Of a DNA stretch of 27,298 nucleotides, positions 6,755 through 15,407 are shown one piece after another. Positions within the stretch are counted from its first letter, which is position 1. Every line of letters begins with the position of its first letter. The notes beneath the pieces were generated by a model, which was given only the letters and a program-made list of their open reading frames with translations, had not been told where the DNA came from and searched no databases. The stretch lies in assembly GCA_050178385.1 (NCBI GenBank), contig JBFXGD010000034.1:1-27298 (forward strand), written 5' to 3'. This stretch comes from Calditrichaceae bacterium (lineage in GTDB: Bacteria; Calditrichota; Calditrichia; Calditrichales; JBFXGD01). The translations under genes were made by a program, and so were the position numbers.

Positions 6755-6922
6755 TTCTATTTTCCCTGAAATTAAATAATGTATTCTGTTTTATGAAAAA
6801 AAGGCAGAATTGCTTTTATAGACCTGATTGAGATTATCGGGTTTTAAGAGTCGGGAAGGTTAAAAACCAGCTGGATTATAGCTTATAAATAGTTGCATGG
6901 AATGCATATTGTGGCTAACTTT

Positions 6923-7534
6923 ATGACCGTGTTTTTAAGAATAATTTTATTAATATCAATTTTGCTGTTTCCCTGTTTCGGAGGGACCGGCGAACCGGAA
7001 TCAAATCGCGATGTAGTTGGAAGACTGATCAAACAGTATTTTGACTCAGTGGATATGACATTACCCGAAAACGGCGGGGAGATTTCCATTCAGGCCGACG
7101 GCATTGAATTGATGAAAAAATTATTTATTAAGAACCAGATGATACAGTATTTTTCCATGAAAGGAATAAGTTTAAGCGCCGATTCGGCTGAGGTTACTCT
7201 TTTCATTGAACAATTAAGTATAAATATCGTTTACATCCAGAATACAAAACAGTTTCTTGGCATCAGTGATTCTGTTCGAAGAATATGCAGCGTAGAGATG
7301 GAGGGCTGGACTGAGTCAAAGAAGGATGATACCCGGGTGAAAGCAATCAAATTCAATAATTCTTTCACTGATTTAATAGAGCGTGATCAGCTAATTTTAG
7401 TAGAAGACGAGACATATCCCTTTTTAAAGGGGAAACTGGCATCCGCATCGGGATGGACGAAACTATTTGAGCCGATAATCGTTGTTTTATCAGTTTCGAC
7501 TGTAATCTATTTGTTTTTTGCCGTGCGGAGCTAA
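6923..7534 (+). CDS. Hypothetical exported protein with C-terminal membrane anchor
   Basis: N-terminal hydrophobic signal (MTVFLRIILLISILLFPCFG) and C-terminal TM segment EPIIVVLSVSTVIYLFFAVRS; directly upstream of bamD; start uncertain (6893-6923). Confidence 0.75.
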   Translation: MTVFLRIILLISILLFPCFGGTGEPESNRDVVGRLIKQYFDSVDMTLPENGGEISIQADGIELMKKLFIKNQMIQYFSMKGISLSADSAEVTLFIEQLSINIVYIQNTKQFLGISDSVRRICSVEMEGWTESKKDDTRVKAIKFNNSFTDLIERDQLILVEDETYPFLKGKLASASGWTKLFEPIIVVLSVSTVIYLFFAVRS

Positions 7535-7616
7535 CAGGATGTAGCCTGAATCTTGAGGTGAATATTTTCATTTCAGGAAGAAAAATAAATGCAGGATCTA
7601 AACAGGAGTATGGAAT

Positions 7617-8372
7617 TTGCGAAAAATAATCATCTTATCAATTCTTGCGGCACTTCTATTCAGTTGCGCGCCTAAAAAAAACCGTATGGACTGGACAGCG
7701 ACTGAATATTTTAAATACGCCATGAAAAAATATCAGGATAAAGACTATTATGACGCGGTGAACGAATTTACGGTTGTGGTATTAAGATTTGCCGGCAGCG
7801 TGGTCGCCGACAGCGCGCAATTCTATCTTGCGGATTCACACTATAAGATGGGTGAATATCTGGTTTCCGCCGTGGAATTTGAAAAACTTGTCAGCGATAT
7901 GAGTAAAAGTCCGCTGGTGGCGGAGGCGCAATATAAAATAGGTGAGTGCTATAATGAAATGTCACCCAGGGCATCTCTTGATCAAAAATATTCATTTAAG
8001 GCTATCCGAGAGTATCAAATATTCATAGAAGATTTTCCTACACACAAACTCAAAGAAGATGCCGAAAAAAAGATTACGGTATTGCGTTCAAAATTAGCAA
8101 AAAAGGATCTTTACAATGCGGCGATATACAGAAAAATGCACCGGTATACAGCGGCATTAATCTATTATGATCTGATTCTGGAAAAATATTATGATACTGA
8201 ATGGGCCGATGACGCGTTGAACGGAAAGATAGAAACCTATCTTGAATTGAAGGATAAACAATCCGCAAAAAAGGAGATAGAGAAGTTCAAAATTCAATTT
8301 CCTTCGAGCACACTGACGCCGGCTGGCGCTGCCATTGTTGACAATGTGGTGAGAGCCGAAGAAAATGAGTGA
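7617..8372 (+). CDS. bamD: Outer membrane protein assembly factor BamD (TPR lipoprotein)
   Basis: Lipobox LLFS-C, TPR repeats, LDQ..AIREYQIFIEDFP and LAKK..A..Y pattern of BamD/ComL; TTG start with SD AGGAG. Confidence 0.9.
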   Translation: MRKIIILSILAALLFSCAPKKNRMDWTATEYFKYAMKKYQDKDYYDAVNEFTVVVLRFAGSVVADSAQFYLADSHYKMGEYLVSAVEFEKLVSDMSKSPLVAEAQYKIGECYNEMSPRASLDQKYSFKAIREYQIFIEDFPTHKLKEDAEKKITVLRSKLAKKDLYNAAIYRKMHRYTAALIYYDLILEKYYDTEWADDALNGKIETYLELKDKQSAKKEIEKFKIQFPSSTLTPAGAAIVDNVVRAEENE

Positions 8373-8964
8373 CAAGACAGAAGCGAAGGGGCTTGGTCTC
8401 TTCGGCGGAACATTTGACCCGGTTCATCTGGGACATCTTGTTGTTGCTGAATGGCTGACCGATTCTCTCGGTCTTCAAAAGACTATTTTTATTCCTAATC
8501 ACAAACATCCATTTGGCAAGCGTCAGGATATTACTCCCGGTGAATTAAGACTGGAAATGCTCCGGCTCGCGCTAAAAAATTATCCGCAGTTTGAGATAAG
8601 TTCCATTGAGCTGGATAGAAAAGGAATTTCATATGCGGTCGATACAGTTCAATACTTCAAAGAAAAATACCCTGACCAGGAGCTGTATTATTTCATAGGC
8701 GCGGATAATCTGAAGGAATTCCTTTCATGGAAAGAACCGCATCAGATACTCCGCCTTGCTTACCTTGTTGTGTTTAACCGTTCAGCATCTTCGTTTACAG
8801 AACCCTTCCAGCATAAAAATCTTCTATATGTTGACAGCCCGATCATAGATATTTCATCGACGCATATCAGGCATCGCATCAGGAAAAAATGTTCCTTCCG
8901 CAGCCTTGTACCGGACACTGTTCATGATTTTATTATTCATAATAGTCTTTATCTAAGTCAGTAA
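8365..8964 (+). CDS. nadD: Nicotinate-nucleotide adenylyltransferase
   Basis: GLFGGTFDPVHLGH, SYAVDT, IGADN, ISSTHIR; overlaps the end of bamD by 8 nt. Confidence 0.96.
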   Translation: MSDKTEAKGLGLFGGTFDPVHLGHLVVAEWLTDSLGLQKTIFIPNHKHPFGKRQDITPGELRLEMLRLALKNYPQFEISSIELDRKGISYAVDTVQYFKEKYPDQELYYFIGADNLKEFLSWKEPHQILRLAYLVVFNRSASSFTEPFQHKNLLYVDSPIIDISSTHIRHRIRKKCSFRSLVPDTVHDFIIHNSLYLSQ

Positions 8965-9005
8965 ATTTAATAAACTTATGTTCCGGATCGCTTTAGAGAT
9001 AAGGG

Positions 9006-9034
9006 TTGCGAATAAATGTAAAATACATTAGATT
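9006..9034 (+). promoter_or_regulatory. Putative sigma70 promoter of the eutN-to-gcvH operon, with a palindrome in the spacer
   Basis: TTGCGA-17 nt-TAGATT; AATGTA-aaa-TACATT inverted repeat at 9015-9029. Confidence 0.55.
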
Positions 9035-9110
9035 CCTTTAATATTCCTGATTTTTTCAAGATTTCAGAGATGGCACAGAGTTGCGAAATCATTATGGGAA
9101 GGGACACAAG

Positions 9111-9437
9111 TTGTTTTTAGGAAAAGTAGTCGGTTCGGTTTGGGCGACAAAGAAAACAGATAACTTAAAAAACCTGCGTTTTTTGATTGTTAATCCGTTA
9201 AATCTGAAAAAAGCGCCTTTAACAGATGTGGTAGTTGTGGCGGATTTATTGGGAGCGGGAGTCGGCGAAGTGGTGATTTGCGCTTACGGCCACGCGGCGC
9301 GGCAGGCGATTTACCCGGATGATCCTTCATCTGTTAGTATTGAAGCGGCTGTGGTGGCTATTGTTGACCGGGTTGATCTGGATTCGGCATTAATGGATCC
9401 AAAACTGAGATCTCTCGATGATTCAAAAAGTAAATAA
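9111..9437 (+). CDS. EutN/CcmL family bacterial microcompartment vertex (BMC-P) protein
   Basis: MFLGKVVGSVWATKK...L..LRFLIV...VVADLLGAGVGEVV...G.AAR...EAAVVAIVD matches the EutN/CcmL pattern; TTG start at 9111 preceded by GGGAAGGGA. Confidence 0.93.
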   Translation: MFLGKVVGSVWATKKTDNLKNLRFLIVNPLNLKKAPLTDVVVVADLLGAGVGEVVICAYGHAARQAIYPDDPSSVSIEAAVVAIVDRVDLDSALMDPKLRSLDDSKSK

Positions 9438-9478
9438 CAAATCTAAAAATACTTTAACAAACTGTCTGGAAATTAATT

Positions 9479-9934
9479 ATGGCAAATATAACTGAAAGCG
9501 ATATCCGTAAACTTGCTGAAGAAGCGCTTAGACAGCTGGGCAAATCCGCAAATCCGGAAGTCATTGAAACGGTTGTTAAAAATGCTGTTAGTAAGATCGA
9601 TAAAGAGAGTAATGTAACTCAGGATTTGAAAACTCTGCAGAAAGAAAGCGTCAAAAGATCAAAAAACCGGATAATCATTACCGCGTTCGGTAAAGACCGG
9701 CCCGGAATTCTTGCAGGATTGACAGGCATTTTAGCGAAGCATACCTGTAATATTGTTGATTTATCACAAAAAATTCTACAGGAATTTTTTACGGTAATGC
9801 TTCTGGTGGATATCTCTGAGTGTGATGCTGATTTTGAGTTTATAAAATCAGAGATGATCCGTACAGGAGAAGAGTTTGATCTAAAAGTAATCGTCCAGCA
9901 CGAAGAAATTTTTAATGCAATGCACAGGGTATAG
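9479..9934 (+). CDS. ACT domain protein (UPF0237/GcvR-like ACT) with ~60 aa N-terminal extension
   Basis: IIITAFGKDRPGILA...NIVDLSQKILQEFFTV...VQHEEIFNAMHRV is typical of the ACT partner of DUF711 proteins; extra N-terminal amphipathic helices. Confidence 0.9.
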   Translation: MANITESDIRKLAEEALRQLGKSANPEVIETVVKNAVSKIDKESNVTQDLKTLQKESVKRSKNRIIITAFGKDRPGILAGLTGILAKHTCNIVDLSQKILQEFFTVMLLVDISECDADFEFIKSEMIRTGEEFDLKVIVQHEEIFNAMHRV

Positions 9935-9937
9935 ATT

Positions 9938-11299
9938 ATGCCGATAGCAATGGAAGAAATATTAGAAACCATACGAATGACAGAGGTTGAGCATTTTGAT
10001 ATCCGTACGGTGACAATGGGTATAAATTTAAAAGATTGTACCAGCGATAATCTCGGTCAGTTGAAAAGTAATATCTATGAAAAATTAATGCGGGTCGCGG
10101 CGGAGCATGTAAAAACAGCCCAAAAAATTGAATCTGAATATGGAATTTCTATCGCCAACAAAAGAATATCTGTCACACCGGTGGCTATTGTCGCTGACGG
10201 ATATTTTATGGAGGATTTCATAGAGATCGCGGAAGTACTTGATAAAGCCGCCGATGAACTGGGGGTTGATTATCTGGGGGGATTCTCCGCATTGGTTCAG
10301 AAAGGATTTTCGAAAGGCGATCTGAATCTGATCCACGCCATTCCCGAAGCGCTTTCGCGGACAAAACATGTCTGCTCCTCGGTGAATGTGGCGACAACAA
10401 AAGCCGGTATCAATATGGATGCCGTGAGCCTGATGGGAAAGATTATAAAACAAACGGCTGAAAATACCGCTGACCGTCAGGGCATTGGCTGCGCAAAGCT
10501 TGTCGTGTTTGCAAACGCGCCTGAAGATAACCCTTTTATTGCGGGGGCTTTTCACGGAGTGAGCGAGCCTGATGTGGTTGTAAATGTCGGCATCAGCGGT
10601 CCGGGCGTTATTTTGAGAGCGGTCAAAGAAGCGCCGGATCTGGATTTTGCTTCACTCGGAGAGCGGATTCGCAGAATGGCATTCAAGATTACGCGGGCCG
10701 GTGAGTTTGTGGGCAGAAAAGTAGCGTCGATGCAGAATATTCCATTTGGTATCGTTGATATCTCTCTCGCGCCGACACCCATGCCGGGCGACAGTGTCGC
10801 GGATATTTTAAAAGCGATGGGGCTCGAAGATGTGGGTGCCACGGGAACAACTGCTGCTCTCGCGCTGCTGAATGACTCAGTCAAGCGCGGTGGATTGATG
10901 GCATCTTCTTATGTGGGAGGAATGAGCGGAGCTTTTATCCCTGTCTCCGAAGACGAAGGTATGATCAAAGCCGCACAAAAGGGTCATATTACTATCGAAA
11001 AGCTGGAGGCAATGACAAGCGTATGCAGTGTCGGCATCGATATGGTAGCTATTCCCGGAAATACTTCCGCGGCGACGATTGCCGGAATTATCGCGGATGA
11101 ATGCGCTATCGGAATGGTAAATAACAAGACGACGGCTGTCAGGGTAATTCCTGTTCCCGGTATGGATGTGGGGCAGGCCGCCGATTATGGAGGCCTTCTC
11201 GGAATCGCTCCGATTATGCCGGTCTCCAAACTCGATAATTCGAAATTTATTGGCCGCGGCGGACGTATTCCAGCGCCTTCAAAAGGTATCAATAATTAA
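9938..11299 (+). CDS. DUF711 / UPF0210 'PFL family' protein
   Basis: [73 protein letters not shown]; usual pairing with the upstream ACT gene. Confidence 0.93.
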
Positions 11300-11313
11300 G
11301 AATAAACACTGGT

Positions 11314-12183
11314 ATGAAATTCTATAAACAGAAAATACACATCGCCATGACGCAAATAAACACCGTGCTTGGCGATATAGATAAAAATCTCGAAAAGCAC
11401 TATTTCGCCATTAATCAGGCAATTGAAGGGAAAAATGATATCATTGTCTTCCCGGAATTGTCTTTAACGGGTTACTCCCTGAAGGATGCTGTTTACGATG
11501 TGGCGGTTACGGCAGATGACACGAAATTTAACGAACTTAAGAAACTCAGTAAGCATATATCAATCATGGCCGGGATGGTTGAATTAAATGACCGCTATGA
11601 AATCTACAATACGGCGCTGTTTTTTGAAAACGGAGAACTGCTGACACGGCACCGAAAAGTGTATCTCCCCACATACGGTGTTTTTGAGGAAGAAAGATAT
11701 TTCAGTTCGGGAAACCGTTTTAGGGCTTTTAATTCAAAATTTGGCCGGTTTGGTCTGATGATTTGTGAGGATATCTGGCACCCGACATCGGGAGTTATCC
11801 TCGCGCAGGACGGGGCATCGGTGTTACTGGTAAGTTCCGCCGCGCTCACGCGGGGAATAGATGAAGACCCCAAACCTGAGAATGTAAGAACCTGGGAGAC
11901 GCTACTGCAGGCGCTCGCGATAACGAGTACATCTTATGTTGTGTTCGCCAACAGGGTCGGGGTGGAAGACGGCCTTGTGTTTTGGGGCGGTTCAGCGGTT
12001 ATCGCGCCGGATGGTAATATGATCACCCGCGCGCCATTCTTTAAAGAAGAAATGATAACGACGGAACTCAATCTGCTAAAACTTAAACACGCGCGATTGA
12101 ATACTACTCTTCTGAGTGATGAGAAATTACCGGTACTGATTGATGAATTTTCCAGGATTTATGAAAAAAATAAAGAATATTGA
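11314..12183 (+). CDS. Carbon-nitrogen hydrolase (nitrilase superfamily), resembling the NAD synthetase glutaminase domain
   Basis: Glu-Lys-Cys triad in FPELSLTGY, HRKVYLPTYGVFEEERYF and ICEDIW; NRVG.EDG..FWGGS. Confidence 0.88.
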   Translation: MKFYKQKIHIAMTQINTVLGDIDKNLEKHYFAINQAIEGKNDIIVFPELSLTGYSLKDAVYDVAVTADDTKFNELKKLSKHISIMAGMVELNDRYEIYNTALFFENGELLTRHRKVYLPTYGVFEEERYFSSGNRFRAFNSKFGRFGLMICEDIWHPTSGVILAQDGASVLLVSSAALTRGIDEDPKPENVRTWETLLQALAITSTSYVVFANRVGVEDGLVFWGGSAVIAPDGNMITRAPFFKEEMITTELNLLKLKHARLNTTLLSDEKLPVLIDEFSRIYEKNKEY

Positions 12184-13271
12184 AAAAAATGAAAAAAATT
12201 CATGTATTGGCAGGTCCAAATAAGGACATTGAAAATCTGTTAGTCAAGTTGAAAGATTTCGGTTTCGATTGTTCGCAGGTTACAAGTTTGTTCGAACTAA
12301 AAAAAAAGTGCGCTCAGTCTAAACCGGCAGCGGTTATCATCGCGGATAATTTGAAAGAAAAAGTTCTGAAACATCTTGTGCCGGCGGTGCTTGCCCTTCA
12401 GGAACTGAGCGGGGCGCCCGTCATCGGAATTACAACAGAACCGGATATCCTGAAATCGGCGGAAGATTTTTTTAGTCAGGGAGCATCTGATGTGATTTAC
12501 CTGCCCGCAATCGCGCAAGAAGTCTCCATGAGAATCAACCTGAGAATACATGAAGCCGGTCTTCAGAATACGCTTACAACAATCGATTTTTTCTTTTCCG
12601 AGGCTCAGGAAAAAGAACAGGGCCGTCGCAGCGGGATATTCCATTTCTATAACTCACACCGGATAAGGGTCGGAGAAGTGATTATCGCGTCGGGGAAAGT
12701 AGTGGGAGCAGCCTACGGCAGTATTATAAAAGAAGACGCTTTTCTGCAGCTGGCATGCAGTTCGTCCCTCTCCTTTCGTTTTGAAGACCGGGAAGATATC
12801 GGAAAAGGCAAATTTATTGCGAATATCACGAATCTCCTGCTGGACGCTTCAAAACTGAAAGATGAAATAAAAAAACAGGAAAGCTGCAGAGATGAACAGT
12901 TAAAGGCGCTTATATTGGACCCCAACCGGATCGCGCGGCTCATGACGAACCGGTTTTTAAAAAATATGGGGATTGATTCCAAGGTAACTTCGCCCGACGA
13001 ATTCACCATCCGCTTTCTTGCTAAATCAGCGCCAGATTTTCTAATTCTGGATTATGCTTCCGCTGAAAAGATTCTGGACATGATCTGGCCGGATGAGCGA
13101 ACAAATTCGGATATTCCCGTAATAATTTATTGCGATGATGTGATAAAAAACCTAAATTTTAACTTTGTTGGTAAACACGAGATCAATGGCTGTGTTTATA
13201 AAAAGCGCCTTCATGTGGAGATAAAAGGACTTCTGGACAAATTATTCAATCTTTCTTCTGAAAATAAATAG
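12180..13271 (+). CDS. Degenerate receiver - DUF4388 (PATAN-like) - receiver-like signalling protein
   Basis: N-terminal CheY-like fold (PVIGIT, GASDVIYLP) lacking the acidic pocket and KP; central RSG.F...GEVII.SG.VV.A..G....EDAF..L...SF.F...ITNLLLDA DUF4388 pattern; C-terminal ALILD...PDFLILD...IPVII. Start is TTG 12180 or ATG 12189. Confidence 0.68.
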   Translation: MKKMKKIHVLAGPNKDIENLLVKLKDFGFDCSQVTSLFELKKKCAQSKPAAVIIADNLKEKVLKHLVPAVLALQELSGAPVIGITTEPDILKSAEDFFSQGASDVIYLPAIAQEVSMRINLRIHEAGLQNTLTTIDFFFSEAQEKEQGRRSGIFHFYNSHRIRVGEVIIASGKVVGAAYGSIIKEDAFLQLACSSSLSFRFEDREDIGKGKFIANITNLLLDASKLKDEIKKQESCRDEQLKALILDPNRIARLMTNRFLKNMGIDSKVTSPDEFTIRFLAKSAPDFLILDYASAEKILDMIWPDERTNSDIPVIIYCDDVIKNLNFNFVGKHEINGCVYKKRLHVEIKGLLDKLFNLSSENK

Positions 13272-13279
13272 GAGGAGCA

Positions 13280-13780
13280 ATGGATCTGAAAGAAATACGT
13301 CAACTTATAAAGGTTGTGGAAAACTCGAATATCGGGGAGCTGGAAATTGAAGAAGACGGTAAAAAGGTTCGGATTACAAAAAGCGTGTCTTCAAATACCG
13401 GAATGATTTATACCCCCGATGTGCCGATGTTCCATTCCCCGGCTCCTCAGAATCCACCGGTTTTACAGCACACTGTAATGTCAGGATCCGCCTCACAGGG
13501 AGAAACGGTTGTCCAGGCGGCTGAGGCGGTAAATACAAATACCTATGAGGTGCGGTCACCTATGGTGGGTACATTTTACGGCGCGCCTTCACCGGATGCG
13601 GAACCTTATGTCTCCGTCGGTAAACAGATATCTGTCGGTCAGGTTTTATGTATTGTTGAAGCAATGAAATTAATGAATGAGATTGAATCGGAAGTTTCCG
13701 GTAAATTAGTAAAAATTTTAATCGAAAATGCCCAGCCTGTTGAGTACAACCAGGTCTTATTCATCATTGAAAAATCATGA
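13280..13780 (+). CDS. accB: Acetyl-CoA carboxylase biotin carboxyl carrier protein
   Basis: MDLKEIRQLI N-terminus, Pro/Ala-rich linker, SPMVGTFY, EAMKLMNEI biotinylation site; SD GGAGG. Confidence 0.98.
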   Translation: MDLKEIRQLIKVVENSNIGELEIEEDGKKVRITKSVSSNTGMIYTPDVPMFHSPAPQNPPVLQHTVMSGSASQGETVVQAAEAVNTNTYEVRSPMVGTFYGAPSPDAEPYVSVGKQISVGQVLCIVEAMKLMNEIESEVSGKLVKILIENAQPVEYNQVLFIIEKS

Positions 13781-13786
13781 TTAATC

Positions 13787-13815
13787 GAATCTGATTATTT
13801 GTCATAATCAGATTC
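13787..13815. repeat. Perfect 12-bp inverted repeat between accB and the kinase gene
   Basis: GAATCTGATTAT-ttgtc-ATAATCAGATTC. Confidence 0.85.
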
Positions 13816-13832
13816 AATGATTATTTTATTAA

Positions 13833-15407
13833 ATGAAATTAAAGACTAAATTATTCTCCAGTTATTTTTTATTAATTGTCCTGTTCACTTTTTCTCTACT
13901 GTGGTTGATAATTGAAATCAGAGAATTAACCACATCCCTCCGCGGACATGTGCAGCAGGATGTGCACAGCATAATTCAGGTATCCCGGCAATTGCAAAGC
14001 CTCGAAGATTTGTACTCGGATTATGTCCTTCTGTTTATCCCCGGAAAATCATCAGATTACCGGATCAGAAATTTAGAAAATTCACGCACAGAGTTCGAAA
14101 CGAACTGGTCTAAATTACGCGTAAGGATGCTTACGCCTTACGAAAAAGCATGGTATGACCAGATGCTGAGCGGTATTTATACATTTTTATACAACATTGT
14201 CGGTGACGAGAAGAAAACGGATTATTCCGCTCAGATAAGTAATCTCGGTGAGAGTGTGGATAAAAGATGGGCGCGTGTGAATGACGCTATTTTGCAGTCA
14301 ATCGGTTTTGTAAAAAAAGACAGGCTGAGTGATGCAAGATATTTAAGGGATACGCGTGTCATAAAGGATGTTCAGAATCTTCGCGCCTCACTCGCGGAAT
14401 TAAACAAAGTGATTGGCGAGCGGGGTATCAGTAAATCTACTCAAATGTCACTGATAGCGCAGAAGACCCAATGGGTTATCATCATCGCCGAAATTTTTAT
14501 TTTTCTGGTCACCATCCTTGTCGCGGTGATTTGGGCGCGTCGCTTGACTAAGCCGATCGATTCGCTCAGGAACGCAATTGAGCAAATGGCGGTCTCTGAT
14601 TTTAATCTTCAAATTAAGGATAAGCCTGATGATGAAATCGGCGAACTTGGAGGGGCGTTTGAACAGCTCGCCGGGAGGCTTAAGGAATCTCAGGGCTATA
14701 AAGCGGCTATGTTGTCTCAGTTTACGCACGAGATGAAAAGTCCTATCGGATCGATAAAACAAGCCACCTATTTACTGGAATCGTCTCTCGGCGATAAGGT
14801 CACTACCGAGGAAAAAAGATTTCTCGCTCTGATCAAAGTGAATAACGAGAATCTTCAGAAGTTGATCACAAATATCCTTAACAGCGCCACATACGAAAGA
14901 AGTAAGATAAAACTGAATTATACAGTGGTAAAAATTGTCAAGTTAATGACAGAGGAACTCATCATTCTCTCGCCGATTATAAGTGAAAAATCACTATTCA
15001 TTAAAATAAACTATTCTTCAAAAACGATCACCCTGGACGCGGATGAAGAAAAAATAAAAGATGTATTCCATAATCTGATCGGTAACGCGATTAAATTTTC
15101 GCATCAGGGAAAGACCATCTCAGTCACCATCAAAGAATCTGTTTCATCCATTCGTATTATTATCGCTGATGAAGGGATCGGGATACCAAAGGAAGAAATT
15201 CCCTATATCTTTGAAAAACTCTACCGCGCGTCAAATTCAAAAAAAATATCAGTGAAAGGCACCGGGCTGGGTTTGTTTATCGCCTCTCAGATAGTAAAAG
15301 CTCATGGCGGCAAAATTACTGTTTCCAGTGAGTTGAATAAAGGTACGGAATTTTTAATTGAACTGCCCCGAACCAGACGCATCGCCGAAGAGGGAGGCTG
15401 GTTATGA
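13833..15407 (+). CDS. Membrane HAMP-domain sensor histidine kinase
   Basis: Two TM helices flanking a helical periplasmic domain; HAMP (LTKPI...DEIGELG.AF); H-box FTHEMKSPI; N-box NLIGNAIKFS; DEGIGI; GTGLGL. Confidence 0.95.
   Translation: MKLKTKLFSSYFLLIVLFTFSLLWLIIEIRELTTSLRGHVQQDVHSIIQVSRQLQSLEDLYSDYVLLFIPGKSSDYRIRNLENSRTEFETNWSKLRVRMLTPYEKAWYDQMLSGIYTFLYNIVGDEKKTDYSAQISNLGESVDKRWARVNDAILQSIGFVKKDRLSDARYLRDTRVIKDVQNLRASLAELNKVIGERGISKSTQMSLIAQKTQWVIIIAEIFIFLVTILVAVIWARRLTKPIDSLRNAIEQMAVSDFNLQIKDKPDDEIGELGGAFEQLAGRLKESQGYKAAMLSQFTHEMKSPIGSIKQATYLLESSLGDKVTTEEKRFLALIKVNNENLQKLITNILNSATYERSKIKLNYTVVKIVKLMTEELIILSPIISEKSLFIKINYSSKTITLDADEEKIKDVFHNLIGNAIKFSHQGKTISVTIKESVSSIRIIIADEGIGIPKEEIPYIFEKLYRASNSKKISVKGTGLGLFIASQIVKAHGGKITVSSELNKGTEFLIELPRTRRIAEEGGWL

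Follow-up and report, generated by a model that had tools for sequence, protein, structure and literature searches.

The window analysed here is a stretch of 27,298 nucleotides (nt) from a Calditrichaceae bacterium (contig JBFXGD010000034.1 of assembly GCA_050178385.1), designated contig C34 of a genome of 3.9 Mb that is spread over 320 contigs and is 94% complete. It contains a short cassette of three genes encoding a vertex protein of bacterial microcompartments (BMC-P, of the EutN/CcmL pentamer family), a small ACT-domain protein and an enzyme of the DUF711 family, followed closely by a CN-hydrolase gene. The ACT and DUF711 proteins correspond to GlyXS and GlyXL, a pair required for glycine-free growth in other organisms. 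On balance, we favour the view that the three genes form a satellite microcompartment locus with GlyXS–GlyXL as its cargo or docked partner, addressed by an N-terminal tag on GlyXS. A first-pass annotation had placed four genes here, separated by 41, 3 and 14 nt. Positions, families and gaps were all reproduced from the open reading frames (ORFs), which all lie on the + strand, and from Pfam, in which the four products match EutN/CcmL, ACT, DUF711 and CN-hydrolase far above cut-off. The features are as follows.

9111..9437, + strand: BMC-P (EutN/CcmL pentamer family), 108 amino acids (aa), TTG start (ORF 9081/9111-9437); PF03319, 81.4 bits (cut-off 25).
9479-9934, + strand: GlyXS ACT protein, whole gene, 151 aa; ACT_6 PF13740, 61.3 bits, domain at residues 64-139.
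9479..9607, + strand: GlyXS residues 1-43, conserved two-helix amphipathic N-terminal tag, a putative microcompartment-targeting module.
9608..9667, + strand: GlyXS residues 44-63, linker, poorly conserved in the alignment and disordered by predicted local confidence (pLDDT).
9668..9934, + strand: GlyXS ACT domain (residues 64-151) and stop codon, the predicted regulatory or small partner of GlyXL; PF13740, NF001220, 1ZPV.
9938..11299, + strand: GlyXL (DUF711/UPF0210), 453 aa, the predicted catalytic partner, without a tag of its own; PF05167, 608.8 bits.
11314..12183, + strand: CN-hydrolase, 289 aa, a flanking backbone gene outside the module; CN_hydrolase PF00795, 154.3 bits.
8365..8964, + strand: nadD (nicotinate-nucleotide adenylyltransferase), the upstream flank; NF000840, 184.5 bits (cut-off 150).

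The ACT and DUF711 proteins had been introduced as a widespread pair of unknown function and DUF711 as an uncharacterised enzyme family, a description that is now out of date. An ACT protein and a protein of the 2HA9 family have been described as GlyXS and GlyXL (Price et al., PLoS Genet 2026, PMC13759103, November 2026), with genetic evidence from Bifidobacterium breve, Methanococcus maripaludis and S. pneumoniae only. Both proteins are required for glycine-free growth in B. breve and M. maripaludis, and the pair from B. breve complements an aerobically grown E. coli glyA mutant (PMC13759103). The authors predict that the product is glyoxylate, which a transaminase would then convert into glycine, and propose a glyoxylate-binding pocket that comprises R22, R75, R403 and E339 in B. 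breve (PMC13759103). The word ‘microcompartment’ is absent from PMC13759103. In the window, GlyXS matches NCBIfam NF001220 with 103.3 bits (cut-off 74) over residues 63-151 and PDB 1ZPV with 60.3 bits; GlyXL matches NCBIfam NF003700 with 701.3 bits (cut-off 440) and PDB 2HA9 with 519.7 bits. All 29 aligned GlyXL sequences share R23, R76, E338 and R402, whose putative equivalence to the pocket residues is by numbering, within one position, as B. breve lay outside the alignment. Judging by their listings, literature searches on DUF711, PF05167 and UPF0210-UPF0237 returned no functional study of the pair.

The N-terminus distinguishes this GlyXS from the form found in most phyla, Firmicutes included, in which the protein is ~89 aa long and has no extension. 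GlyXS measures 137-155 aa in Calditrichota, Ignavibacteria, Melioribacteraceae, Chlorobi-like, Rhodothermaceae and Marinimicrobia-type metagenome-assembled genomes (MAGs). Among 80 loci the extension is present in 11 (8 Calditrichota-type and 3 FCB-group), and most of the others have the ~89-aa form. The motif is conserved in an alignment of 43 sequences from Calditrichota, Ignavibacteria, Chlorobi-like, Rhodothermaceae and Marinimicrobia-type MAGs, which gives the tag consensus M..L.E..IR.I..EAI.QLG..ATPE.V..VV, followed by a stretch that is variable in length and sequence. AlphaFold2 run on 43 sequences (mean pLDDT 82.9) places helices at residues 6-20 and 26-53, with a pLDDT of 71-80 in the tag, <50 at residues 44-59 and >90 in the ACT domain. 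Both tag helices are amphipathic in this model, with hydrophobic moments of 0.62 and 0.45 that are reached by 107 and 153 of 5000 shuffles, respectively. Tagged glyXS is not beside glyXL in 18 of 46 non-Calditrichota loci (L126, L129-L135, L137, L140, L141, L143, L146, L149, L153, L160, L162 and L167), and glyXL was found elsewhere in all five such genomes tested. A tag on GlyXL where it is unlinked from glyXS was considered and can be ruled out: in five of five genomes GlyXL is the plain, untagged 453-aa form once its start codon is placed. Separately, a Bacillota MAG (L027:4639-4989) holds, upstream of DUF711, a 116-aa ACT ORF with a helical, amphipathic-looking N-terminal extension of ~27 residues, which could be an independent Firmicute tag or an ORF-calling artefact.

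The extension has a precedent in the literature. In a catalogue of microcompartment loci, Sutter 2021 (PMC8217296, supplement file 4) commented on an ACT protein of the FRAG4 type that its N-terminal domain ‘seems specific to this BMC’. The protein was taken as a likely amino-acid-binding regulator, and the catalogue notes it for FRAG4 only; encapsulation-peptide hidden Markov models (HMMs) gave nothing in FRAG genomes (PMC8217296). FRAG4 is said there to hold BMC-Ps from four clades, and Cabys_2141, a Caldithrix satellite BMC-P of 97 aa, is placed beside a 107-aa FRAG4 satellite BMC-P (waterBlue2) (PMC8217296). DUF711 and PF05167 have 0 occurrences in the seven text supplements of the catalogue, whose locus diagrams are pictures only. 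Whether the association had already been catalogued was a point on which the first-pass annotation could not decide. The answer is divided: an ACT protein with a BMC-specific N-terminus is on record for FRAG4, and DUF711 goes unmentioned in the text supplements. Literature searches for a microcompartment with glyoxylate and an encapsulation peptide, or with an ACT domain and FRAG, returned nothing on such a link.

Could a tag on GlyXS also carry GlyXL? A complex model of GlyXL with the ACT domain of GlyXS scored 0.68 (0.68, 0.46 and 0.70 in separate runs), against 0.00 for the best of three controls. The mark of 0.68 is reached by 116 of 157 solved complexes and by 2 of 215 mismatched pairs, counts that apply only roughly here because the model was built on custom alignments. 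Between runs, at least 80% of contacts coincide, the partner pLDDT is at least 81, and GlyXS contributes its invariant C-terminal QHE..F..MHR helix to the modelled interface. A remembered complex is an unlikely source of the score, as the PDB holds the 2HA9 and 1ZPV families only as separate entries. The model thus supports binding of GlyXL to the GlyXS ACT domain.

The shell itself was expected to be encoded elsewhere in the genome, and shell genes were indeed found on other contigs. PF00936, the BMC domain, gave 15 matches on contigs C95, C161, C206 and C263 and none in the window, which is therefore free of BMC-H and BMC-T genes, as had been noted from its sequence. PF03319 gave five matches genome-wide, namely the window BMC-P and four further BMC-P genes. 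Translations on C95, C161 and C206 were judged by eye alone: C95 resembles an ethanolamine-utilisation locus, and on C161 and C206 a tandem-BMC-domain protein is accompanied by genes that look like those for aldehyde dehydrogenase, phosphotransacylase and PduS. The BMC-P genes that remain adjoin nucleoside/deoxyribose genes. On C87 (8257-9467) a BMC-P adjoins a DeoC aldolase in which the Pfam domain does not begin before residue 71, and on C3 (40292-42337) two BMC-Ps lie behind a metalloenzyme-superfamily protein resembling phosphopentomutase. The 70-residue N-terminal extension of the C87 DeoC consists of an amphipathic start and then a Cys-rich stretch; a pyrimidine-nucleoside-phosphorylase-like gene is among the neighbours of the scattered BMC-P genes (C87 and C3), and behind the BMC-P pair on C3 comes an ORF of 106 aa that looks like a coiled coil. 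Within the window, a Pfam scan of 10 ORFs (6893-15407) detected no BMC-H, BMC-T or aldehyde dehydrogenase, which bears out, over that range, the earlier remark that the window has no aldehyde dehydrogenase. Sutter 2021 (PMC8217296) uses the term satellite locus for shell genes, alone or with enzymes, that are distal from the main locus. The window falls under that definition, with a shell gene and enzymes that stand apart from any locus with BMC-H and BMC-P.

How stable is the association of the BMC-P gene with glyXS–glyXL? Coordinates of BMC-P and DUF711 were compared by eye in 86 Calditrichota genomes. DUF711 is present in 39 of them, nearly all from the order of the window, and PF03319 in 64, typically in 4-5 copies in that order and 3 in others. 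An ortholog of the window BMC-P (69-94% identity) occurs in 37 of the 86 genomes, each of which is DUF711-positive, and it lies <900 nt upstream of DUF711 on the same strand in 35 of the 39. The four exceptions are G008 and G021, which end at contig edges, G031, which is without the BMC-P, and G051, a member of another order whose cassette (C192:38856-42162) has a 2.6-kb insert with a BMC-domain match between BMC-P and DUF711, in the position that BMC-T takes in locus L118 (below). Other Calditrichota orders keep a BMC-P triplet and have neither the cassette ortholog nor DUF711. Given its recurrence in 35 of 39 genomes, the adjacency is far beyond chance. Loci from named records, which are not independent data, show the same pattern: BMC-P is present in all eight Calditrichota-type loci among 80 DUF711 loci kept, and directly upstream in 32 of 34 Calditrichota-type loci among 80 ACT loci kept. 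A MAG labelled C. abyssi (L104) has the same gene order. In a further Calditrichota MAG (L118, 1617-4923) bamD-nadD is followed by BMC-P, a PduS-like flavoprotein of 436 aa (Complex1_51K+Fer4+RnfC_N), a BMC-T of 181 aa with two BMC domains, tagged glyXS and glyXL. Outside Calditrichota, BMC-P was found near DUF711 in none of 72 loci. The adjacency is therefore deep but lineage-specific, and the idea that it would be conserved in related genomes holds across one Calditrichota order without being general.

By sequence, the BMC-P at the head of the cassette is a member of the EutN/CcmL family. Its start at 9111, a TTG codon already proposed from the window alone, is confirmed by 33 orthologs (loci L094-L128), all of which have a start codon at the homologous position (23 TTG, 8 GTG and 2 ATG). 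Sequence comparison makes it a fourth or fifth paralog of a kind restricted to the Calditrichales-type order, with 44% identity to its nearest paralog in the same genome, C3a. It is very unlikely, in our estimation, that this paralog has ceased to be a shell vertex and now serves GlyXS–GlyXL as a free pentamer, be it as partner, scaffold or regulator. Such a role would agree with an extra copy beyond the triplet that is strictly co-distributed with glyXS–glyXL, with a loop insertion of three residues and a charged, variable C-terminal tail that are missing from the paralogs, and with a lower PF03319 score in the genome scan (81.6 vs 92-100 bits for the four paralogs). Against it, the protein aligns over its full length with the closest solved chains, the BMC-P pentamers 4I7A and 5V74 of solved shells, and its alignment with orthologs (25 sequences) has 50 invariant columns, a degree of conservation suggestive of a strongly constrained family fold; moreover, tagged GlyXS occurs in many genomes without the cassette paralog, and in L118 the cassette BMC-P is clustered with other shell genes. 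In all 33 orthologs the charged tail follows a conserved VDRMDVD end. The start is non-ATG (TTG or GTG) in 31 of 33, and weak starts would be in keeping with a protein of which each shell needs only a few copies.

Beyond this order, the tag was compared with the presence of shell genes, with the following counts.

Ignavibacteria (class): tagged GlyXS in 29/151 genomes; BMC-H-positive 29/29; background 56/151.
Marinimicrobia (phylum): tagged GlyXS in 9/151 genomes; BMC-H-positive 9/9; background 41/151.
Calditrichota (scored by DUF711): 39/86 genomes; BMC-H-positive 37/39; background 61/86.
Other genomes reached through loci: tagged GlyXS in 45; BMC-H-positive 45/45; background not sampled.
Genomes of L021-L023: tagged GlyXS in 3; BMC-H-positive 3/3; background not sampled.

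The set of 45 includes four genomes that are also in the Ignavibacteria or Marinimicrobia samples. All 29 Ignavibacteria matches are full length, with no short GlyXS among them, and 16 further weak matches in Marinimicrobia are ACT domains inside larger frames that were not counted as GlyXS. For the three clades with a background, one-sided Fisher tests that ignore shared ancestry give p = 7e-16, 4e-6 and 4e-6, values that overstate the case because relatives are not independent. Tagged genomes are also richer in BMC domains: at least four matches are present in 27 of 29 tagged Ignavibacteria vs 10 of 27 untagged BMC-positive ones, and at least three in 8 of 9 tagged Marinimicrobia vs 4 of 32. 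These higher counts suggest a link between tagged GlyXS and one particular type of shell, with a tandem-domain BMC-T that may belong to a PduS/PduT-like pair. As a side observation, one Calditrichota genome (G018) holds the full BMC-P/glyXS/glyXL cassette without a BMC-H match, which could be a binning loss or a shell-less state.

The first-pass annotation had counted the CN-hydrolase as a fourth member of the module, and this part of its proposal was dropped. The best NCBIfam match of the CN-hydrolase is the N-terminal, glutaminase half of the NAD+ synthase NF010588 (positions 3-247 of 546, 167.6 bits, below the full-length cut-off of 479), and in four genomes of other Calditrichota orders its closest homologs form the N-terminus of ~597-aa frames fused to the synthetase. 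The genome of the window carries a separate 278-aa NAD_synthase frame on C66 (4883-5593). Two-subunit forms of NadE are known, and the CN-hydrolase is probably the glutaminase partner of a split NAD synthetase. The synthetase is seemingly split in the lineage of the window and fused in those four genomes. The cassette is flanked by bamD and nadD upstream and by a DUF4388-like gene and accB downstream, and bamD-nadD precede it in related loci too. G043, a genome without BMC-P, ACT and DUF711, shows the order BamD, NadD, 540 nt without a convincing ORF, CN-hydrolase, DUF4388-like and AccB, and thus the backbone exists without the cassette. On account of the NadE-like match, the fused homologs and the G043 order, the unit, as read from homology and gene order, is three genes (BMC-P, ACT and DUF711) set into a nadD/NAD-synthetase housekeeping block. 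That the CN-hydrolase nevertheless acts with ACT/DUF711 in a microcompartment pathway is to our mind extremely improbable: the gene does lie 14 nt downstream on the same strand and comes after DUF711 in every Calditrichota locus extending that far, but it follows nadD in G043 where there is no cassette, is not adjacent to glyXL in 28 non-Calditrichota loci having glyXL, and resembles an NAD+ synthase glutaminase that is fused in other orders and has a stand-alone synthetase here. Downstream, a 363-aa protein at 12180-13271 overlaps the CN-hydrolase stop by 4 nt and has a weak, sub-cut-off DUF4388 match (18.3 bits); its gene is kept between CN-hydrolase and accB in several related loci and in G043. 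An Rfam scan of the whole window gave 0 matches, hence no glycine riboswitch or other RNA element, and neither promoter-like sites (10 vs 9.1 in shuffles) nor terminator-like sites (5 vs 5.2) are enriched.

Taken as a satellite microcompartment locus, the cassette can be described by the following model. BMC-P, glyXS and glyXL would belong to the fragmented (FRAG3/SPU-like) metabolosome of the organism. GlyXS would have gained an N-terminal module of two amphipathic helices on a disordered tether, which would work like an encapsulation peptide and dock GlyXS to shell proteins. GlyXL, itself untagged, would then enter through its attachment to the ACT domain, in the way that subunits without a tag are carried into known metabolosomes, and the pair would reside inside the shell rather than on its surface. 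The adjacent BMC-P paralog might serve as an extra vertex protein co-expressed with the cargo in the Calditrichales-type order. If the predicted chemistry is correct, the product glyoxylate, being an aldehyde, belongs to the class of intermediate that metabolosomes confine. In sum, GlyXS–GlyXL has probably been recruited to the organelle. The early suggestion that ACT/DUF711 is cargo or a regulator of a shell encoded elsewhere is therefore strengthened by the shell genes, the conserved adjacency and the BMC-restricted tag, and encapsulation itself stays a prediction.

The most serious competitor to this model, which we regard as somewhat unlikely, holds that the N-terminal module of GlyXS has a job outside microcompartments (oligomerisation, docking to an enzyme or membrane, or regulatory input), that the BMC-P gene arrived by chance insertion in one ancestor of the order and that the link with shells reflects shared ancestry of FCB-group lineages with FRAG-type loci. 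Several observations weigh in its favour and against the satellite-locus model. An HMM of the 44-residue tag searched against 40,585 six-frame ORFs of the same genome matches only itself; the tag is found only on GlyXS and does not detectably resemble any other N-terminus encoded there, that of the aldehyde dehydrogenase scoring at the level of noise (E=18). The tag profile picks up 51 proteins among 8000 scored candidates, all of them ACT proteins of 140-154 aa, and a single-sequence search found no longer tag carriers among 58 candidates. As matches are limited to GlyXS-sized ACT proteins, the tag is not an address label shared by sequence, and the self-only HMM match and the ACT-only profile matches give no evidence of its reuse on other cargo. 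Encapsulation peptides are typically one helix of ~18 residues and weakly conserved; the GlyXS tag, compared with PduD/EutC-type peptides, has two helices and ~43 residues, is conserved across phyla and sits on a regulatory ACT protein. The BMC-P gene is dispensable in G031 (same DNA as L122), where NadD is followed directly by tagged glyXS-glyXL. It is not found within 4 kb of tagged ACT in any of 46 non-Calditrichota loci, and five tagged-GlyXS genomes from outside Calditrichota hold only triplet BMC-Ps (<=47% identical) and no ortholog of the fourth one. Confined as it is to one order, the adjacency may count as a single evolutionary event. Two DUF711-positive Calditrichota genomes have no BMC-H at E<=1e-8, namely G014 (64% complete) and G018 (98% complete, 4 BMC-P matches). 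Most BMC-positive genomes of the three clades are without the pair (24 Calditrichota, 27 Ignavibacteria and 32 Marinimicrobia), which means that shells do not need it. Finally, the published function of GlyXS–GlyXL is biosynthetic (PMC13759103); glycine biosynthesis is anabolic and the genome of the window also carries glyA, a poor fit to a catabolic metabolosome. What speaks for the satellite-locus model over this competitor is the perfect nesting of tagged GlyXS among BMC-positive genomes in two clades, each sampled on its own and with backgrounds of 37% and 27%, respectively, a second shell-gene context in L118, where BMC-P, the PduS-like gene and BMC-T directly precede glyXS, and the tag-linker-domain anatomy, which resembles that of known targeting peptides. 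In addition, the catalogue authors independently judged the N-terminal domain of the ACT protein to be BMC-specific (PMC8217296).

What would a shell-associated GlyXS–GlyXL mean? Hundreds of catalogued loci (ACI, FRAG1-7, HO, MIC2-7, MUF2-3) are reported by Sutter 2021 (PMC8217296) to have an aldehyde dehydrogenase and no known aldehyde-making enzyme. A shell-restricted tag on the partner of a putative glyoxylate-forming enzyme offers a concrete candidate cargo for such organelles. As an unlikely extension, we speculate that the signature enzyme still missing from the FRAG-type metabolosomes of Calditrichota, Ignavibacteria, Chlorobi-like bacteria and Marinimicrobia, the one that generates the aldehyde, is GlyXL. 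Glyoxylate would be made or consumed in the shell and passed to an encapsulated aldehyde dehydrogenase, the PduS-like/BMC-T pair would move electrons across the shell, and the ACT domain would gate flux by amino acid. If true, the case would be without precedent both as a glyoxylate microcompartment and in its use of a regulatory ACT protein as cargo adaptor. For work on GlyXS–GlyXL itself, the shell-restricted tag means that across an entire bacterial branch the pair probably acts at an organelle, a setting that bears on the substrate of GlyXL and on why a reactive product might need confinement. The present analysis contributes the dedicated BMC-P, the PduS/BMC-T variant and counts for three clades, and it takes the CN-hydrolase out of the module. 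Caldithrix abyssi has been cultured, and together with the L104 gene order this makes a bench test feasible.

The system can be placed beside three known ones. The pair of Price et al. (PMC13759103) consists of the same two families in the same gene order, here 3 nt apart. GlyXS is ~89 aa there as opposed to 151 aa with the two-helix tag and linker here, and in the window the genes stand behind a BMC-P gene in a genome with shells and have 0 glycine riboswitch matches around them. Among catalogued microcompartments, FRAG3 is described as most common in Calditrichaeota and has a DeoC/LacD aldolase beside BMC-P (PMC8217296), the same arrangement as is seen on C87. With FRAG4 the window shares an ACT protein that has a BMC-specific N-terminal domain, and the text of the catalogue, as far as its supplements go, is silent on DUF711. 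The third parallel is with the peptides of classical metabolosomes. PduD and EutC are small subunits of metabolosome enzymes with an N-terminal encapsulation peptide that brings untagged partner subunits in. GlyXS has in common with them a terminal extension that is missing from non-BMC homologs, contains an amphipathic helix and leads into a poorly conserved linker; here, too, the tag sits on the small subunit, to which the partner is predicted to bind.

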